Below, one piece after another: positions 5,963 to 12,748 of a DNA stretch of 61,443 nucleotides (the stretch's first letter is position 1; each line of letters opens with the position of its first letter). Origin of the DNA: a virus (lineage: Duplodnaviria > Caudoviricetes); the IMG/VR virus record IMGVR_UViG_3300042905_004017, positions 1 through 61,443 of that record. One strand, 5' to 3'. The notes beneath the pieces are model-generated. The model saw only the letters and a program-made list of their open reading frames with translations. It was not told the DNA's origin and did not search any database. The position numbers and the translations under genes are program-made.

Positions 5963-8281
5963 TTAAGCAAGTGCATTGGTCATTTTTCTTGTGTTTTCTG
6001 CAGTGTCTTCCGTGGCACGTAACATGTCTTCCCATATAGTTTTGTCACGCATGGTGCTAATTAATTCGTCTAGTTTGCCAATTTGTGCTTGATTGCTGTT
6101 GGTTATTTGGGTGGCCAAAGTTGACAAGGTAGACGTCACAGTTTCCGACATCTTGGCAGATTCTGCAGATGTTGCTGATGCGGCAGAATCTGTGGATGTT
6201 GTAGAGGCCAAATCTTTTAATACACCAGTTTGCGCATTTTTTACCAGATCTGTAAATTGGTTGGGTGTCATTACTGCTTGGGGTCCATGCAGTTCTGCCA
6301 GTGTTCTTAGTCCAAAATCATGAAAATACTGGCCATGGACTCCCAGTGTACCTTTGTTGTATCCTTGTGGTTTACCACCTTTACCACCACCACCACCAAC
6401 AGATTGAGAAAATCTATCAACCGCACCAGAAAATTTATTGACCACGCCTAGAAAAACTTCACCTGCTTTGGCACTAAGTTCGGCCACTTTGCCTCCGGTT
6501 TGCAATTTGGGTCCTTCTGCAACCAGTCCCAGATACATTTTCATGTATTTCTCTTGCAGTTTGAATTGTTCATCCATGACTCCGGCCAAGCCTTTGGGAC
6601 CAAGTTTATCAACAAACATTGCCATTGCGCCTGTCAAATTATTGATTTGTTCAGGTAGTTTATTTCGCGTGACCTGTTCGGCCTGCACAATTGACTCTCT
6701 CAATGGATCAATCACGTTGTTGAGTTTGTCCACATTTGTACGCAATTGTTTCATTTGCTCCACAGTATTTCCAATGCCCTCAACTTCGGCTTGTCTAGCT
6801 GCTAATCCTCGAGCAGCCAGATCTTGTTGTCCTTCCGCTAATCTGGTTTGTGCGTCCATGCCTTTGTCCAAAGCAGATATTGTACCAAATCTTTCTGCCA
6901 TGCTATCACCTTCGGCTTTTAACGCTTCGGCGTTGTCTTTGACCAGTTCTTCGTAGCGTCGTGATGCTTCTTCGGCACTAATTGTGCCTGCGTTTAAGTC
7001 AGCATACACTTGATCCATGATTTTTTTACGTGTGGGACTGTTTGCCAACATGATATTGAGATTTTTATCTACTACTTGTCCGCCAGTTACCAACATCTGT
7101 TGCAAAGCCTTGGTCATGTCTGGACCCATTTTAGCAGACAGCGCCATGAATTTTTGTGTAGCTTCTCCGCCCATTCTTTCTAGTTTTACTCTTACGGCAC
7201 CTTGTTGGGCTGCTTCCTTGGCTCTGGCTTGAGCTGATTTAAGATCTTCGCCAGTAAATGCTGTCACAGCCTTCATGGTCATCAAATGTTTTGCACCTGC
7301 TTCGGCGATTTCTTTGTCTGTCATTCCGCGCAATTTGCCAGTTTTGTTCATAATGTCCATGAATTGAGCCATGCCTTCGGTTTGCTCTTCATAGCTAATT
7401 CCGGATCTCAACAACTGTTGGCGTAAGTCTTTGCCTTCTTTGTTCAGCTGATCAAATGCCAATCCGACATTTCTTAGTTTTTTAACTCCGCCTGTTGCAG
7501 AGCCTCCAAAGTCAACCAATTCTTTCCTGCTTCTTGTGACAACCTGTGAGAATTCATTTAGATTCAAGCGCAGTTCACCAGCAGTTTCCCGCATCTGAGC
7601 CATGCCACCACCAAGCAACACTCCGTTTTTGGTCATGACATCAAACGACATGGTTGTGATACTGACTTCTTTGTTTAAAGCTTGCAAACCTTTTTGCTGC
7701 TCAACACTCAAATTTTTGGCAAAACCAGCCAGTGCTCCTACACCTGCTGCAACTCCGGCAGTGAGTCTGGCTATTGGATTGGGTATCAAAGCCAGAGTGG
7801 TTGCTGCCATTTCGGCACCTGCAGTCAGTTTGTCCAACATGGAAATTTGACTTTCCAATGCTGCATTCTGCATGTTAAATGCTGTTTGAATTCCCGAGGC
7901 GCCTTCTTGGTAACTGCCAATGGCAGTGTACATTTGTTTGGTTACAAAAGATATAGCTTCTGTCAGACCACCTTTGAGTAGCGCGGCCGACATTGTTCCT
8001 GCAGAATTTTTAAAAATTTCAGCTGCTGCCTGTGCCTGTTGTGCCAGTAGGTCTTGTCCTGCTTTAGATTTTTGAACGCTTTCTGTTAGGGCTCCAAATT
8101 GTGCAATTGAACTTTGTAATGCCGCTGTTTGACTTTGCACTGTGCCTGTGCCACGTTGCATCTGGTCGCGCAGTCGGGCCATGGCCGCGCTGGCACCGGT
8201 CAATGATGCTCTGGCATTGCCGGCTGCACCGGTCAATTGTCCAAATGTCTGTAGTAACTGTTGAATTTGTGGATCAGCCAT
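5963..8281 (-). CDS. Tape-measure-like tail protein
   Basis: 772 aa, Ala/Gly/Gln/Met-rich and helical with a hydrophobic stretch; perfect TATAAATA upstream; adjacent to a chaperone-like gene pair. Confidence 0.6.
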   Translation of the reverse strand: MADPQIQQLLQTFGQLTGAAGNARASLTGASAAMARLRDQMQRGTGTVQSQTAALQSSIAQFGALTESVQKSKAGQDLLAQQAQAAAEIFKNSAGTMSAALLKGGLTEAISFVTKQMYTAIGSYQEGASGIQTAFNMQNAALESQISMLDKLTAGAEMAATTLALIPNPIARLTAGVAAGVGALAGFAKNLSVEQQKGLQALNKEVSITTMSFDVMTKNGVLLGGGMAQMRETAGELRLNLNEFSQVVTRSRKELVDFGGSATGGVKKLRNVGLAFDQLNKEGKDLRQQLLRSGISYEEQTEGMAQFMDIMNKTGKLRGMTDKEIAEAGAKHLMTMKAVTAFTGEDLKSAQARAKEAAQQGAVRVKLERMGGEATQKFMALSAKMGPDMTKALQQMLVTGGQVVDKNLNIMLANSPTRKKIMDQVYADLNAGTISAEEASRRYEELVKDNAEALKAEGDSMAERFGTISALDKGMDAQTRLAEGQQDLAARGLAARQAEVEGIGNTVEQMKQLRTNVDKLNNVIDPLRESIVQAEQVTRNKLPEQINNLTGAMAMFVDKLGPKGLAGVMDEQFKLQEKYMKMYLGLVAEGPKLQTGGKVAELSAKAGEVFLGVVNKFSGAVDRFSQSVGGGGGKGGKPQGYNKGTLGVHGQYFHDFGLRTLAELHGPQAVMTPNQFTDLVKNAQTGVLKDLASTTSTDSAASATSAESAKMSETVTSTLSTLATQITNSNQAQIGKLDELISTMRDKTIWEDMLRATEDTAENTRKMTNALA

Positions 8282-8289
8282 GTTTTCTG

Positions 8290-8322
8290 CCTATAAATAT
8301 AGTATTATCAATTATTTATAGG
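8290..8322. promoter_or_regulatory. Pair of oppositely oriented T4-type late promoters (TATAAATA on + at 8292-8299 and on - at 8313-8320)
   Basis: CCTATAAATA-13 nt-TATTTATAGG inverted repeat between divergent genes; exact T4 gp55 consensus. Confidence 0.85.
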
Positions 8323-8331
8323 AATCAAAAA

Positions 8332-9180
8332 ATGGATCAAAAACCTCTCAATCCATTGCGAGCTCATTTTAGACAACCGGCAATTTATCTCAAATTACCC
8401 AGCAACGGAGACTTTTGGCTGGCAGGGTTGGACATGCCCAAGACTCACGAGTTGCCAATATATCCAATGACTGCCAAAGACGAGATCATGTTAAAAACAC
8501 CCGATGCCCTGTTAAATGGGCAAGGTGTTGTAGATGTGATCGAAAGCTGCTGCCCGCACATCACAGATGCCTGGCAGATTCCCAGCACAGACGTGGATGC
8601 CATATTGATTGCAATTAGAATAGCATCTTATGGCGACACCATGGGCATTGATACCAAGTGCCCGCACTGCGAAACAGAAAACAGATTTGATGTTGCACTC
8701 ACCGGATATCTAGATGGTATTCAGTGTCCAGATTATAATCGCAAACTAGAACACGAAAAAATTAGAATAAAAATCAAGCCACAAACCTACGCAAGTTTAA
8801 ATGAAACCAGCAAGATCAGTTATGAACAACAACGCATGTTAGAAAACATTGTGGTTGACGGCAGCGAAGATCAAGTCAAAGTTACTGCGTATAAACACCA
8901 TATTGGCCGATTGGTTGATCTCAACGCCAAGCTGCTGGTAGACAGCACAGAATTTATTGAACTGGTTGACAGTGGCTCCATAGTCTCCGAACCAGAATAC
9001 ATCAAAGAGTTTTACTTGAACTGTGATTCAGAAATTTGTAAAAAACTACAAGAACGCATACTTGAACTTAGTCAGCAAGGTGCAATCAAACCTCAAACCG
9101 GCACTTGCGAAAATTGTTCTAAAAACTACGACGTTTCATTGACATTTGACTATGCAAGTTTTTTCGCCAACAGCTCTTGA
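8332..9180 (+). CDS. Baseplate hub / tail assembly chaperone, T4 gp26-like
   Basis: True start is probably ATG 8332 (AGGA RBS, after the late promoter), not 8101. Motifs LKLPS.G, PMTAKDE, D.DAILIAIR.ASYG, two CxxC pairs and a terminal SFF. Confidence 0.75.
   Translation: MDQKPLNPLRAHFRQPAIYLKLPSNGDFWLAGLDMPKTHELPIYPMTAKDEIMLKTPDALLNGQGVVDVIESCCPHITDAWQIPSTDVDAILIAIRIASYGDTMGIDTKCPHCETENRFDVALTGYLDGIQCPDYNRKLEHEKIRIKIKPQTYASLNETSKISYEQQRMLENIVVDGSEDQVKVTAYKHHIGRLVDLNAKLLVDSTEFIELVDSGSIVSEPEYIKEFYLNCDSEICKKLQERILELSQQGAIKPQTGTCENCSKNYDVSLTFDYASFFANSS
9159..9165 (+). other. Predicted -1 ribosomal frameshift slippery site T TTT TTC
   Basis: In-frame X XXY YYZ heptamer shortly before the stop; the -1 frame stays open into ORF 9177..9395. 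Confidence 0.6.
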
Positions 9181-9395
9181 CACTTGACGCCGAAGGTATT
9201 TTAGGTTTAGTTAAGAGCTACGAAAAACAAGTCAAAGACATCAAAGAAGACCTACTAAGAATGTGCTGGTACATGCGCGGCGGATTGAATTACAACGATG
9301 CCATGATGTTGGGCAGCGAAGATCGACGTATCATAAACGAAATTATCAAAGACAATTTAGAAACTGCCAAGAAATCAGGAATGCCATTCTGGTAA
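9177..9395 (+). CDS. Small baseplate/tail assembly protein (gp51-like), probably the frameshifted C-terminal extension of the upstream gene
   Basis: 72 aa (CWYMRGG..Y..AM.L...DR.II); TTG start with no clear RBS; in the -1 frame of the upstream gene. Confidence 0.65.
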   Translation: MTLDAEGILGLVKSYEKQVKDIKEDLLRMCWYMRGGLNYNDAMMLGSEDRRIINEIIKDNLETAKKSGMPFW

Positions 9396-9807
9396 GACTA
9401 ACTGCGTTAGTCTATTGATTTCGCTTGCGCTCATCAATGTTTTTTTAGGTTTCATCCAGATTAATTGGTCACTCTTTGCCCAGGGCGGGCAAAAATTATA
9501 TGCTTCATCCGAGTCGCATAGTCACTAGTATTAGAGCATTACAGAGGCGGTTGTCCGGTACCTCGAGCTCCGTTCTTATCACAACGGCGATTTGTACACA
9601 ACATACTAGCGTGGTATACAAACGTGTGCAATCGCTTGCACGTCTTTTTAGCCTTATCAATCCTATTCAAACAACTAAATCGCGGCGTTTGCGATCTTCA
9701 TCCCGAAGGGTAGTAGTTGAGTGCTCGTTGCGGCGACGAGGCTTCCGTCCCTGTGTATATTTCAACCAGGTCTAGGGCACACGATATTGACCTGTGCTAG
9801 TCTTTAC
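9392..9807 (-). ncRNA. Candidate large structured ncRNA (~410 nt), family not recognised
   Basis: About ten hairpins; on the minus strand cc-UUCG-gg, GCGA and GCAA tetraloops; potential long-range pairings; no credible ORF. Confidence 0.6.
9395..9446 (+). terminator. Double hairpin plus T-tract; probable intrinsic terminator of the + operon
   Basis: AGACTAAC-tgc-GTTAGTCT (9395-9413), then ATTGAT...ATCAAT (9414-9438), then T7, immediately after the stop codon. Confidence 0.6.
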
Positions 9808-10594
9808 TGCTCAAAATTCTTAATTTATTTGATAGAAATTTGCCATAAGATTCATGAGATAAAGGGCCAGGGTGTGAATTATCATTGCCAAGGTCTATTA
9901 ACATACTAACCATAGGTTGATACAAATTGAGCCATAATTGTTCTTGTATACCGCCAACGGACTGATAATCATTGTGTATTTTATCGTATAATAAATTTAT
10001 TTGATCGTCGTTTCTGTTATAAGAATTTAAAATAGTGTTTGTATATTTTGTAAGTGAGTTTGATTTGATTGGTTTTGATTTTTTTTTAAAAAAGTTTTTA
10101 TCCCAATGACAATAATTGTTTAAAAAGTAAATTTTTGTTTTTTTGGACTTGGCCAAGGTTGAGAGAATATTAACATATCTGACAATATCCAATATATCGT
10201 AATGTGCATTACTGATCAAACATAAATCATCTCGCAGTTTATGTAAAAATTTATCACTAAATGATAAATCATTACCATGAAACGGCAATAGATCGTGACC
10301 AGCTTTAAATACCCTAGTGCAATCGTATGGCTCTAGGCCTAACCAAGTGTAGTGTCTTGGATAGCTTGTCCAGCCAACAAAAACAAAATCATAAGCAGAT
10401 TTTGTTAATTCCACACATGTATCTAAAAATATACGCAAGTTTGAATATCCACCTACACCTATATTGGTTACAAGAACATCATCACCAAACATTTCTGCAG
10501 CTAACACATTTGCATAATGCATTGAATTCTGATTTTCTAAATCTAATCCAATACCTTGAACAATGGAGCATCCAGAAAATAATAATCTAATCAT
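9797..10594 (-). CDS. SGNH/GDSL-like hydrolase or acyltransferase, AT-rich
   Basis: N-terminal FSGCS.VQG, G.GG.SN block and C-terminal HPG motif. Confidence 0.65.
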   Translation of the reverse strand: MIRLLFSGCSIVQGIGLDLENQNSMHYANVLAAEMFGDDVLVTNIGVGGYSNLRIFLDTCVELTKSAYDFVFVGWTSYPRHYTWLGLEPYDCTRVFKAGHDLLPFHGNDLSFSDKFLHKLRDDLCLISNAHYDILDIVRYVNILSTLAKSKKTKIYFLNNYCHWDKNFFKKKSKPIKSNSLTKYTNTILNSYNRNDDQINLLYDKIHNDYQSVGGIQEQLWLNLYQPMVSMLIDLGNDNSHPGPLSHESYGKFLSNKLRILSSKD

Positions 10595-10605
10595 TACTCA
10601 ATTTG

Positions 10606-11034
10606 TTAAAGTTTGTTTTTTATATGAGAGCCATGGACACGGACCTGTATATGCCCGTTGTAATAATCATCTGATTCTAAGACTTGGTGTCGGAATTGTT
10701 CTCTTGCTTCAATATATGAACATTCTGCTTTTGATTTACAGTAATACAGTATTTGTCTAGTGAATTTGTCTGCGCCTAGAGTTTGTATGTCTTTTTTGAG
10801 TTCGTCATTTGAGCCATAATATTCTTGCCAATCGCTATCTATTTTGCTTCTGATCTTCTTTTTCTTTTTGTTACCGTTTTTAAGTTTTACTGTTCGTACT
10901 GTAGTTTTTGAAAATTTAGCTAACTTCTTTCCTATGTATTTGCGCCCAGATACAGTATTCGTTATCAAATACACAAATCCTACACAATCTTCAGGAAGTG
11001 ATTCCACAAGAGTGGATTCGAATAGCCATGACAT
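10606..11034 (-). CDS. GIY-YIG family endonuclease (single domain, Seg-like)
   Basis: GFVYLITN..SGRKYIGKK, YYGS, conserved Glu and a terminal YYN; basic KKKKK loop. Confidence 0.85.
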   Translation of the reverse strand: MSWLFESTLVESLPEDCVGFVYLITNTVSGRKYIGKKLAKFSKTTVRTVKLKNGNKKKKKIRSKIDSDWQEYYGSNDELKKDIQTLGADKFTRQILYYCKSKAECSYIEAREQFRHQVLESDDYYNGHIQVRVHGSHIKNKL

Positions 11035-11045
11035 ACAGCATATAA

Positions 11046-11630
11046 TTATGCCTTATAGTCTAGATTACAATAAAATGTTATTTCCTCTATACATGTGTTT
11101 GGATCCAAAGTTTGAGCATATTTTATAAAATTAGATACTGCTTCTAGATCAATTCCATTTCCTGTCCATGTAGGTCTACTACGACTAAGTTCAGTATCTA
11201 ATCGATCCAGTGTAATTAATGTAGTTTTAAATGATACTGTATTTGCTTTAAATGCTGCTGTGCCCTGTTGGCTAGCATGCTCTAAGGCTGCTTTTGCTAC
11301 ACGATAAGTTTCAAATCTTGGTTCTGGAGCTACAACGATTTTATTACCCACACTGCCAATATTGACGATCCATCCTGTTTTATTAGCTGCCCGCCATGCA
11401 TCATAAACAGCAAAATACACCTGTGACTGAGCAAAGTTAGCCCATGCTTCTTGCGGAGGACCATCAAATGCGTTATTGACAAACACATCGTAGTCCAAGC
11501 TCATTGCAGCAATCGCATCTGTATTGCGGGTAATATCAATGCCGTCTGCACGACTGACACTTGTACCTGCAAATTGTTCAACTAGGTGTTTACCTAGCCC
11601 TCTATTGCCGCCTGTTACCAACATCTTCAT
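11046..11630 (-). CDS. Short-chain dehydrogenase/reductase (SDR)
   Basis: TGGNRGLG Rossmann motif, NNA, NIGS and catalytic YRVAK (YxxxK). Confidence 0.85.
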   Translation of the reverse strand: MKMLVTGGNRGLGKHLVEQFAGTSVSRADGIDITRNTDAIAAMSLDYDVFVNNAFDGPPQEAWANFAQSQVYFAVYDAWRAANKTGWIVNIGSVGNKIVVAPEPRFETYRVAKAALEHASQQGTAAFKANTVSFKTTLITLDRLDTELSRSRPTWTGNGIDLEAVSNFIKYAQTLDPNTCIEEITFYCNLDYKA

Positions 11631-12748
11631 CTAATAGATCCTCCTTGATCCCAAACTTTTGTAAATTTTTCTCCGCACGTCATGGCGCATTCCATAATTT
11701 TGTTTGATCCAGACCAGCGATCAACAAGCTCAGTCCAAAAATTTGATTGAAAAATATCTTCTAAACTTTTGTTATTGATGTCTAATTCGTTTTTATATTG
11801 TTCAACAAACGCTTTTACTTGAATTCTTCCTGGGCCAGTAAAACTTGATTCATGCGCCCCTGGCATGGCACTGTCACGGAATCTGGCATCGTACATGTTA
11901 TGCTCAAAGAAATTACACGGCAATACTAATCCTTCAGCAGTTATAACAACTTTGTTGCCTAGCAGCGCATCGCATTGAACATCAGTTAGTTCAAGATACT
12001 TTCTAAAGCTACCGTGCATCTTTTTTATTACTTCAATTTTTTGTACACTGGGATTACGCAATTCCTCTAGTGTGGGTTCTTCTAAGCAATATTCAATGTT
12101 TTTGTTTTTATCTAGTACAGGCCAATTTTTATAAGCAGTTTCGTTTTTATGATCGTAAAATCTTCCAGTTTTTCTAGCCAAGAAATTAAAAAAGCCATAT
12201 TCTTGACTTAACGCTCTTGCCTGTTCAACTTGGTGCTCGTTGTGTTTAAAAACAATATAGTTCCATTGTGCTCTACCACCAGCACGAATAAACGCCAGGG
12301 CATTACGCATAGCTGTTGCATATTTTACATTACGTCTGTACAGATGTAAAGTATCCTCTAATCCATCAAATCCAAAATCAATCTGACCGTACCCGTTCAT
12401 TATACGGGCTATTTCTCCCCAGTAGTTTTCGTCATGAACTCCGCCGTTGGTATGAAAGTATAACCAAAGTGTTGGATTCTTCCGCCTAAAGTCCTGTAGT
12501 ATATCCAGAAAGTCGGGATGCATGATAGGATCGCCGTAACTGCCGCAAAAAAATATTTGTCGTAAACTTTTACAATGTTCGACGCTAAACGCAGCATCAA
12601 TAGCACACCTGTCTAAATGCACTAGAGGCATATAGGGATTTACGGGACCACCTTGTATGTTTCTAGGACATTGGGGACAGGCAGCATTACAATAGGTTGT
12701 AATTTCCAGTTGATATTCTGTTATTTGAGAAAAAATAAAATTTTTCAT
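11627..12748 (-). CDS. Radical SAM enzyme with C-terminal SPASM/twitch domain
   Basis: CNAACPQC, GSYGDP, HTNG; C-terminal C...G.VLPC...CAMTC. Confidence 0.9.
   Translation of the reverse strand: MKNFIFSQITEYQLEITTYCNAACPQCPRNIQGGPVNPYMPLVHLDRCAIDAAFSVEHCKSLRQIFFCGSYGDPIMHPDFLDILQDFRRKNPTLWLYFHTNGGVHDENYWGEIARIMNGYGQIDFGFDGLEDTLHLYRRNVKYATAMRNALAFIRAGGRAQWNYIVFKHNEHQVEQARALSQEYGFFNFLARKTGRFYDHKNETAYKNWPVLDKNKNIEYCLEEPTLEELRNPSVQKIEVIKKMHGSFRKYLELTDVQCDALLGNKVVITAEGLVLPCNFFEHNMYDARFRDSAMPGAHESSFTGPGRIQVKAFVEQYKNELDINNKSLEDIFQSNFWTELVDRWSGSNKIMECAMTCGEKFTKVWDQGGSIR

Follow-up and report, generated by a model that had tools for sequence, protein, structure and literature searches.

Location and family of the RNA

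The window that we analyzed is 61,443 nucleotides (nt) of a Caudoviricetes virus (IMG/VR record IMGVR_UViG_3300042905_004017, positions 1 to 61,443). On its minus strand, near position 9600, it encodes a structured non-coding RNA of ~410 nt, which is the subject of this report. The RNA fills a gene-free stretch at 9396-9796 that is the longest gap between open reading frames (ORFs) of at least 100 amino acids (aa) in the window, if ORFs are placed greedily. This gap is flanked by convergent genes, and its GC content is 0.445-0.475, versus 0.245-0.315 in the adjoining 265-aa ORF. An original prediction, made by a model from the sequence alone, had described the gap as the longest ORF-poor stretch and as richer in GC than the neighboring gene, and both statements are correct. 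The features at the locus are:

8101-9180, plus strand: gene for a gp26-like baseplate hub protein (PF12322, phrog_150)
9177-9395, plus strand: 72-aa ORF without a family match, which ends at 9395 and is convergent with the RNA
9395-9807, minus strand: the whole conserved RNA element, running from a 5' end near 9807 to the base of the last hairpin (9395), which is its 3' end
9797-10594, minus strand: 265-aa ORF, AT-rich (GC 0.25-0.31), between the GIY-YIG gene and the RNA
10606-11034, minus strand: gene for a 142-aa GIY-YIG protein that has the catalytic domain only (PF19835, SegE-type, E = 1e-33; phrog_447, E = 1e-37)

When the whole window was compared to Rfam 15 with cmscan, there was a single match, to the Polynucleobacter-1 RNA (RF01718), at 9669-9802 on the minus strand. 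The match includes the entire model (positions 1-141 of 141) and its score of 112.5 bits is far above the gathering score of 37 (E = 1.3e-23), so the element is not wholly unrecognized. The original prediction had presented all of it as unrecognized, which does not hold for the 5' third but does hold for the other ~270 nt. A permissive search of 9300-9900 (E up to 10) found nothing beyond RF01718, and in particular no ribozyme family. The sole literature source that we found on the Polynucleobacter-1 motif is the catalogue of Weinberg et al. from 2010 (PMC2864571), whose Table 1 gives it as a probable RNA that is probably cis-regulatory, from Burkholderiales in fresh water or estuaries. We did not find the remaining ~270 nt or the full architecture in the searchable literature.

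Among the genomes of 185,579 species, we found just 7 matches, all on contigs of metagenome-assembled genomes (MAGs; L121-L127) that are short or isolated, and so we consider this to be a phage RNA. The 7 "bacterial" carriers are probably phage contigs that were mis-binned with bacteria, and they give at best a weak hint about the host. (Their labels are Polynucleobacter, Limnohabitans, Haliscomenobacter, Bordetella parapertussis, and Bacteroidetes.) A blastn search with the RNA against 50,697 GenBank phage records gave no match. A pattern that we built from the best-conserved nucleotides of the Rfam match identified at least 119 viral contigs that carry the motif. The RNA in the window is the full-length form of the Polynucleobacter-1 family, and its carriers are uncultured T4-like phages, probably from lakes. 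It is close to certain that the RNA is real, structured, and a member of this family.

Conservation, strand, and lack of coding potential

Of the 119 motif loci, 101 had enough flanking sequence, and 82 of those are unique. For the analysis of covariation, we used an alignment (A1) of 62 sequences that were thinned to under 93% identity (the mean pairwise identity is 68% and the minimum is 48%).

Across the 82 unique relatives, identity to the window ranges from 0.45 to 0.89 per 20-nt bin over 9807-9407 and drops to 0.10-0.50 past either end of the element. The peak of 0.89, at 9567-9548, is outside the part that Rfam matches, and the 273 nt past the Rfam match have 72-89% identity in many relatives. 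In other words, the ~270 nt beyond the Rfam match are as well conserved as the Rfam part, or better. The catalogued motif is only the 5' third of the RNA; the full unit is ~270 nt longer, with two more pseudoknots and a repeated word, which are described below.

The element belongs to the minus strand, as had been proposed. On that strand, 9396-9668 (273 nt) folds better than shuffled sequences (z = -2.51, with 3/200 shuffles equaling it), whereas on the plus strand the same region does not stand out (z = -0.74, with 52/200 shuffles as good).

The element is also non-coding. The gap could instead encode a protein, either from a 99-aa ORF on the plus strand (9476-9775) or from a small ORF on the minus strand, and a frame of 99 codons is indeed open in the window. 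Conservation of this ORF at the protein level, which the original prediction had named as a reason to doubt the RNA, was not seen: just 3 of 62 relatives keep the frame open over 95 codons or more. Also, the entropy by codon phase is flat (0.746, 0.809, and 0.769), and of 393 deletions, counted against the window's sequence, 369 have a length that is no multiple of 3. In the 82 unique relatives, the longest frame without a stop has 42-140 codons, and its strand, frame, and place vary. A protein-coding gap is extremely improbable.

A conserved fold with three pseudoknots

RNAalifold, given the 62 relatives, predicted 71 pairs, of which 45 have compensatory changes. Our final structure was written by hand from a scan for covarying helices together with mutual information. 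It contains 97 pairs in 23 helices, with three pseudoknots, and its statistics were counted on A1. In this structure, 96.5% of cells are paired, as compared to 81.6% in 500 shuffles (0/500 reach the observed value) and 35.5-39.9% if partners are slid by 1-3 columns. Similarly, 70 of the 97 pairs changed on both sides (49.2 if shuffled, 28-39 if slid), and the covariation score is 0.427 (0.166 if shuffled, 0.046-0.065 if slid). (The structure was derived from the same sequences, so the slid-partner control is generous to the structure; the margin is nevertheless very large.) The parts of the structure, from 5' to 3', are:

9669-9802, minus strand: 5' domain (RF01718 match); helices 1-8 are 97-100% paired and 22/36 pairs changed on both sides
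9797-9793/9781-9777, then 9776-9775/9746-9745 with 9770-9764/9757-9750, then 9742-9736/9728-9723, minus strand: helices of the RF01718 domain
9719-9714/9677-9672, then 9713/9699 with 9709-9708/9703-9702 (UUCG loop), then 9696-9691/9683-9678, minus strand: the other helices of the RF01718 domain
9686-9684 (GCC, in the loop of the last 5'-domain hairpin) with 9653-9651 (GGC), minus strand: pseudoknot 1; 3/3 pairs covary, 90.7% paired
9626-9641, minus strand: hairpin GUGCAA-GCGA-UUGCAC; all 3 aligned pairs covary
9590-9623, minus strand: hairpin GUUUGUA...UACAAAU with inner stem 9613-9611/9602-9600; 7/7 pairs covary; its loop holds the 5' strand of pseudoknot 2
9609-9603 (CUAGUAU) with 9531-9525 (AUACUAG), minus strand: pseudoknot 2; 7/7 pairs changed on both sides, 97.9% paired
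9533-9585, minus strand: 3'-domain core, with the GAGC stem 9571-9567/9537-9533 around the hairpin AGGU 9563-9560 / GCCU 9548-9545
9585-9581 (GUUGU) with 9554-9550 (ACAAC, in the loop of the GAGG/CCUC hairpin), minus strand: pseudoknot 3; 3/5 pairs covary, 97.1% paired
9499-9520, minus strand: hairpin UAUGC 9520-9516 / GCAUA 9503-9499, whose loop appears to carry the first copy of the word
9474-9494, minus strand: central hairpin UUUUGCCC-GCCCU-GGGCAAAG, between the copies of the word; 94.2% paired, 4/8 pairs covary
9414-9438, minus strand: hairpin AUUG..CAAU, internal loop GA/GAA, loop GCAA; 7/7 pairs covary
9395-9413, minus strand: 3'-terminal hairpin AGACUAAC-GCA-GUUAGUCU; 8/8 pairs covary

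Pseudoknot 1 ties the 5' domain to the 3' domain. The near-invariant sequence GGUACCGG..ACCGCC is in the 3'-domain core (9533-9585), in the most conserved bin of the element, and CCCUAGACCUGG and CACAGGGAUGGAA are further near-invariant stretches that are unpaired. We also noticed an alternative 6-bp helix, 9578-9573/9495-9490, in which 2 positions covary. It uses the 5' strand of the central GC-rich hairpin and competes with that hairpin's lower stem, so it may represent a second conformation (a switch) or base triples. On the plus strand, the 3'-terminal hairpin (9395-9413) has a terminator-like score too, and there it would serve the convergent 72-aa ORF.

Most of the stems in the original prediction are present in this fold. 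Covariation in the 62 relatives supports GCACA/UGUGC, CUCG/CGAG, CAACUA/UAGUUG, GAUCGC/GCGAUU, GUGCAA/UUGCAC, UUUGUA/UACAAA, GAGC/GCUC, GAGG/CCUC, and UUUGCCC/GGGCAAA. The pseudoknot that had been proposed between 9609-9603 and 9531-9525 is our pseudoknot 2, with 7/7 pairs covarying, and the UUCG, GCGA, and GCAA loops do read as such on the minus strand. Four other pairings did not hold up. A helix that would close the two ends of the element is paired in only 39% of cells. The AGCCU/AGGCU pairing, which was said to resemble helix P4 of RNase P, is 33-56% paired in every register that we tried, with no compensation. The CGG/CCG stem is either invariant or broken (18 sequences have A.G) and overlaps the covarying pseudoknot 3; and the CCGUU/AACGG stem, although 86% paired, has zero double changes and competes with pseudoknot 3. 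Overall, conservation, covariation, and the strand bias of the fold bear out the central proposal, a large, real, structured RNA on the minus strand of a phage genome.

A seven-nucleotide word that occurs twice and changes in concert

The 3' domain contains two copies of a seven-nucleotide word, 53 nt apart, on either side of the GC-rich hairpin:

9510-9504, minus strand: word copy 1, GGAUGAA, in the context ...CUC-GGAUGAA-G; same-letter covariation with copy 2
9457-9451, minus strand: word copy 2, GGAUGAA, in the context ...UCU-GGAUGAA-A

The two copies change alike, to the same letters rather than to complementary ones. We first saw this by eye in A1, and mutual information identified three column pairs that have the same letter in 61, 62, and 62 of the 62 rows. 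In 101 of 120 loci, a pattern detected both copies, and these are identical in all but one (100/101). The identical copies fall into seven classes: GGAUAAU (29 loci), GGAUGAU (28), AGAUGAA (20), GGAUGAA (9, including the window), AGAUAAU (9), GCAUAAU (4), and AGAUGAU (1). As an independent set, we used loci that were found via the neighboring GIY-YIG protein, whose relatives are encoded by at least 587 viral contigs; we took the best 78 new loci from these. There, the copies are identical in 46/46 new unique loci (the pattern found no copies in 7 others), and two further words appear, for 9 variants altogether. Across both sets, the copies are identical in 146/147 loci.

We also built a maximum-likelihood tree of A1 from which the word columns were left out, and on it each copy has no fewer than 23 changes of state. 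In phylogenetically independent pairs, the changes always go in the same direction, both at position 1 of the word (7 pairs, P = 0.016) and at position 5 (6 pairs, P = 0.031). For position 7 there are only 3 independent pairs (P = 0.25). The two words have changed together repeatedly and independently. At least 23 joint changes are a clean and unusual sign of something that reads both copies.

Copy 1 appears to lie in a hairpin loop. In the 31 of 79 loci that fit the pattern of the test, the complementarity of its flanks is 4.35, as compared to 3.73 if permuted, which exceeds all 200 permutations. The spacers of the two repeat units do not show mutual pairing (2.94 versus 3.01 on permutation).

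What reads the word? Within the RNA, we found no complementary segment that covaries with it. The sole recurrent internal complement (30/62 sequences) is a G/U-rich, near-invariant strand at alignment columns 162-170, which would pair mostly by wobble and shows no covariation. As none of the internal complements stands out, whatever reads the word is apparently outside the RNA. We also searched the flanks, at ~9 kb per locus or 712 kb in all, for the word or its complement. A locus's own word is not enriched there over the words of the other classes, in either the sense orientation (0.94 versus 0.92 per locus) or the antisense orientation (0.62 versus 0.57). An apparent cluster of words ~600 nt downstream is a conserved coding sequence, GGATGAT, in a convergent gene, and it does not vary with the word. 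Readings of the word as resembling codons, stop codons, anticodons, CsrA sites, or DnaA boxes were considered as well and dropped, because none of them fits all 9 variants. The twin words do give a direct handle for finding the RNA's partner.

An exchangeable 5' domain and a constant 3' core

Of the 78 protein-derived loci, 66 have at least 450 nt downstream of the nuclease gene. Both domains of the RNA are present in 40 of these, 19 have the 3' domain only, and 7 have neither domain downstream on the same strand. Of the 19 loci in which the 3' domain is alone, we scanned 17; the other two appeared to be duplicates. RF01718 reaches its threshold in 3 of the 17, and in the other 14, what precedes the 3' core is another 5' domain. 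When 10 of these 14 loci were aligned, they showed an alternative 5' domain that is conserved, unrelated in sequence to RF01718, and not in Rfam. (In these 10 loci, which are L137, L139, L140, L143, L158, L168, L169, L185, L189, and L191, it lies ~140-190 nt after the GIY-YIG gene.) In the subfamily with the alternative 5' domain, the two words are identical in all 13 unique loci in which both copies were found.

The 5' domain is modular. Since the 3' core is shared behind differing 5' domains, it is the constant part of the RNA, which has at least two front ends, the Rfam motif being one of them. The 3' core, which is missing from Rfam, is the more widely conserved part.

Neighboring genes and the GIY-YIG nuclease

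The genes gp47 and gp46 and the GIY-YIG gene had been named correctly, according to Pfam, but in the window the 265-aa ORF separates the GIY-YIG gene from the RNA. The UAG stop codon of this ORF (9799-9797) falls within the RNA's conserved 5' motif, GGCUAGC. None of the 119 other loci has a homologue of the ORF, and it has no match in Pfam, even at E = 10, or in PHROG. (A search of a protein atlas gave a lead only, to phage DUF6071-like proteins.) The 265-aa ORF looks like a recent insertion, and it is outside the usual context of this RNA family.

Elsewhere near the RNA, the 72-aa ORF on its other side (9177-9395, plus strand) is kept in 46 loci, each time beside the baseplate hub gene. Between gp46 and the GIY-YIG gene (11046-12748, minus strand) there are genes for a radical SAM protein of 373 aa and a short-chain-dehydrogenase-like protein of 194 aa, which scores under the Pfam cut-offs. 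The inserts at this place differ among relatives. ARAGORN found no tRNA or tmRNA in the window, and there are no tRNA genes near the RNA in 56 loci. The GC skew has no extremum at the RNA; its cumulative minimum is near 30 kb.

To survey the context of the RNA, we clustered the ORFs within 4 kb on each side of 120 loci. In 99 of these, the nearest upstream ORF on the same strand belongs to the GIY-YIG family, with a median gap to the RNA of 4.5 nt. In the window and in 8 further loci, one or two ORFs lie between the GIY-YIG gene and the RNA. In 3 loci, the GIY-YIG gene's place is taken by a 172-aa PD-(D/E)xK endonuclease (PF24608). In one locus and its duplicate (L017 and L108), the RNA is in another context, with no nuclease within 2 kb. 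The genes downstream of the RNA vary widely: the next gene is convergent in the window and in many relatives, and on the same strand in some.

We also looked for the sequence TATAAATA, the consensus of T4 late promoters. None of the 82 unique loci has such a box within 150 nt upstream of the RNA, and 19 of the 82 have one directly after the 3' hairpin. Together, these observations suggest that the RNA is co-transcribed with the upstream genes and has a defined 3' end.

Starting from the nuclease instead, 59 of the 66 protein-derived loci have at least the 3' domain of the RNA downstream. As for the 7 that do not, a ~380-aa ORF directly follows the nuclease gene in 4, and other ORFs follow it in L193. 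In L166, the nuclease gene is followed by a 400-nt gap that contains another, unmatched RNA-like sequence. In L192, the 3' domain is found upstream of the GIY-YIG gene and on the opposite strand (L192:2434-2704), which indicates a local rearrangement.

More distant relatives of the nuclease (under 60% identity) are encoded in 499 GenBank phage records, mostly from T4-like cyanophages. We sampled 7 cultured phages with the nuclease (Melnitz-3, phiN3, Bellamy, ACP17, Variovorax V45v66, S-SCSM1, and ACG-2014f), and nhmmer, with E up to 10, found neither domain of the RNA in any of them. In GenBank phages, members of phrog_447 are often labeled "NAD synthetase," which seems to be a mis-annotation that was propagated. 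Two cyanophages, Bellamy and S-SCSM1, have the GIY-YIG gene after nrdA/nrdB, with tRNA genes 0.25-0.9 kb downstream of it; in ACG-2014f, the gene is ~1.7 kb after an nrdB-type gene, and ferrochelatase follows it directly. The place after nrdA/nrdB in cyanophages suggests that the nuclease may be an orthologue of T4 endonuclease II.

The 142-aa protein retains the GIY-YIG motifs, and PF19835 spans residues 3-129. A sequence search of the PDB gave nothing better than E = 0.24. When we compared a predicted model (mean predicted local distance difference test score, or pLDDT, of 81) to known structures with Foldseek, there was no match at E = 0.001 or better. The most plausible matches were the catalytic domain of I-TevI (probability 0.95, template modeling score by target 0.60) and a GIY-YIG restriction enzyme (probability 0.80), so the predicted fold is, weakly, closest to the I-TevI catalytic domain.

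Overall, the association of the nuclease and the RNA is strong, but it is obligate in neither direction.

What might the RNA do?

In the explanation that we favor, the element is an autonomous gene, and its product is a structured RNA of ~410 nt that acts in trans. Transcription would probably run on the minus strand, with the RNA forming the last part of the gp47-gp46-...-nuclease unit and ending at the 3' hairpin (9413-9395). The RNA would have two domains: an exchangeable 5' domain (the Rfam motif here, an unrelated fold in other phages) that docks via pseudoknot 1 on the 3' core, and the 3' core itself, which pseudoknots 2 and 3 would hold together. The core would present the same 7-nt word twice and so act as a two-site platform, with both words being read by one common partner. 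Most likely, the partner would be a protein, of the phage or of the host, that is dimeric or is bound in two copies. Such an RNA might resemble the protein-sponge or scaffold RNAs that present repeated loops. We put the probability of the two-site platform at roughly 40%. If the partner is a host factor, or a replication or recombination protein of the phage, then the RNA would represent a phage regulatory RNA of a new class; if the partner is the neighboring nuclease, the nuclease would be of a new, RNA-dependent kind.

The transcription and processing of the RNA, the reader being a protein, and what binding achieves are parts of this proposal that we infer, and the same is true of the transcript, its ends, and its abundance, which weighs against it. 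Several other points do too. Copy 2 of the word is not clearly in a loop: its flank complementarity is 3.87 versus 3.61 if permuted, and the highest permutation gives 3.9. The flank test fitted just 31 of 79 loci. The words could be kept identical by gene conversion between short repeats, or by a reader that acts on the DNA, as with iterons. Our analysis found no reader of the words. And if the RNA and the nuclease gene are unrelated, nothing explains why the RNA follows the gene so tightly (the median gap is 4.5 nt).

That tight placement counts in favor of an RNA that works with the nuclease. In this explanation, which was also raised in the original prediction, the RNA is a partner subunit (a guide, a targeting RNA, or an inhibitor) of the GIY-YIG nuclease, or of the PD-(D/E)xK enzyme that replaces it, and the words could recognize a target that is present in two copies. 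In 99 of 120 loci, the closest upstream ORF on the same strand is the GIY-YIG gene, which is farther upstream in 8 more and in the window. Furthermore, the protein is almost all catalytic domain, an enzyme of another nuclease family occupies the same place in 3 loci, and 59 of 66 protein-derived loci have at least the 3' domain downstream. Against this, nuclease homologues are present in 499 GenBank phage records and the RNA is absent from all 7 that we sampled; 7 of the 66 close relatives lack a same-orientation RNA downstream; and L017 and L108 have the RNA without a nuclease within 2 kb. Nor does any residue of the nuclease track the word (the best normalized mutual information is 0.62, and it is 0.45 for the most variable position). 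All this speaks against obligate pairing of the nuclease and the RNA, and we consider the partnership unlikely. A more specific form is that the twin heptamers are base-pairing guides, so that the RNA is a targeting subunit that gives domain-only nucleases their DNA specificity, for example for the same word on the arms of an inverted repeat. If so, this would be an undescribed kind of RNA-directed homing or host-DNA nuclease. Also against the partnership, the word is just 7 nt long with 9 variants, neither a locus's own word nor its complement is enriched in the 712 kb of flanks, and the alignment has no hypervariable, guide-like segment. We consider guides of this kind very improbable.

Could the element be a replication origin instead? 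Its transcript could form a persistent RNA-DNA hybrid that primes the leading strand, as at oriF and oriG of T4, with the words being iteron-like sites for an initiator. Identical direct repeats that change together would be typical of sites for one DNA-binding protein, and gp46 and gp47, which serve in recombination and replication, are next to the element. R-loop primers, the iterons of oriE, and origins at divergent transcription with compositional shifts are described in a review on T4 (PMC3016281). At our site there is no extremum of the GC skew, and the repeats number only two. The 70 compensatory pairs and three pseudoknots show selection on the fold over the whole ~410 nt, which a simple primer would not need. 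We think an origin is an unlikely explanation. A ribozyme, which might excise itself from the nuclease mRNA or catalyze another reaction, is decidedly unlikely. The size of the RNA, its three pseudoknots, its GNRA-type loops, and the near-invariant unpaired GGUACCGG..ACCGCC, CCCUAGACCUGG, and CACAGGGAUGGAA do recall large catalytic RNAs. Also, without a TATAAATA box in the 150 nt upstream, the RNA may need to be released from a longer transcript. But no ribozyme family in Rfam matches even at E = 10, and the pairing that resembled P4 of RNase P fails, so we rejected RNase P RNA as well (no Rfam match to E = 10 and 33-56% paired without compensation). Flanking exons and the 5' half of an intron are absent, and the GIY-YIG ORF starts 11 nt after the end of the preceding ORF. 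For similar reasons (no match to an Rfam intron, this 11-nt spacing, and flanking genes that differ among loci), we rejected a group I intron with a GIY-YIG homing endonuclease. The original prediction, that the element is not a tRNA, tmRNA, or group I intron, agrees with both ARAGORN and Rfam. Finally, the RNA could act in cis, either as the 5' leader of the downstream gene or as a 3' untranslated region that controls the nuclease mRNA or makes it more stable. The 2010 catalogue marks the motif as probably cis-regulatory in its Table 1 (PMC2864571), some relatives have a same-strand gene downstream, and the competing alternative helix, with its 2 covarying positions, could be a switch. Yet the next gene is convergent in the window and in many relatives, and the downstream neighbors vary widely. 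Furthermore, where a TATAAATA box lies between the RNA and a same-strand follower, the follower appears to have its own promoter (a box follows the RNA in 19/82 loci). Action in cis seems quite improbable.

Comparison with known RNAs

GOLLD and ROOL are large, conserved RNAs with multiple pseudoknots that are carried by phages. They are known mainly from metagenomes, their function is unknown, and they are often near tRNA genes. Like them, our RNA is large, has several pseudoknots, is highly conserved, and is borne by phages. Unlike them, it is smaller (~410 nt) and has no tRNA neighbors (in the window or in 56 loci), and it matches neither family in Rfam at E up to 10. To our knowledge, a repeated word that co-varies is not a described feature of GOLLD or ROOL.

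The sponge RNAs CsrB and RsmZ also carry several copies of a short word that is offered to one protein, as the word here may be, and copy 1 of our word is apparently looped, as in those RNAs. However, the GGA of their sites is essential for CsrA binding, and it is lost in AGAUGAA, AGAUAAU, GCAUAAU, and AGAUGAU (34/100 loci), so our RNA is not a member of that group. It also has only two copies, which are embedded in a large, knotted fold.

The omega RNAs of IscB and TnpB, and the HEARO RNA, are similar in being large structured RNAs that immediately follow a small nuclease gene and abut its 3' end. Here the nuclease is GIY-YIG or PD-(D/E)xK instead of RuvC/HNH, both a variable guide segment and transposon ends are lacking, and the nuclease and the RNA each occur alone. 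We also considered and rejected the kind of RNA found in type III toxin-antitoxin systems: our RNA has two words 53 nt apart within a larger fold and lies downstream of a GIY-YIG gene, instead of being a tandem array of short repeats upstream of the gene for an endoribonuclease toxin.

Some RNAs serve as the primer at an origin, such as RNA II of ColE1. The R-loop RNAs of T4's oriF and oriG, and the iterons of oriE, as described in the review of T4 origins (PMC3016281), share with our element a structured transcript beside replication or recombination genes and short direct repeats. Compared to the origins as described there, our site has no skew shift, has convergent transcription, and shows far more conservation of the fold.

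The closest comparison is to the Polynucleobacter-1 motif itself. The cis-regulatory role that Table 1 of the catalogue suggests (PMC2864571) does not fit this locus: placement upstream of a gene can be rejected for the window, where the next gene is convergent. The habitat given there (Burkholderiales, fresh water or estuary) may agree with that of our RNA, as the MAG labels include Polynucleobacter and Limnohabitans, although those are probably mis-binned phage contigs. All of the helices in the RF01718 model are present in our RNA and are maintained by compensatory change. An orphan motif from 2010 turns out to be the front third of a triply pseudoknotted RNA of ~410 nt.

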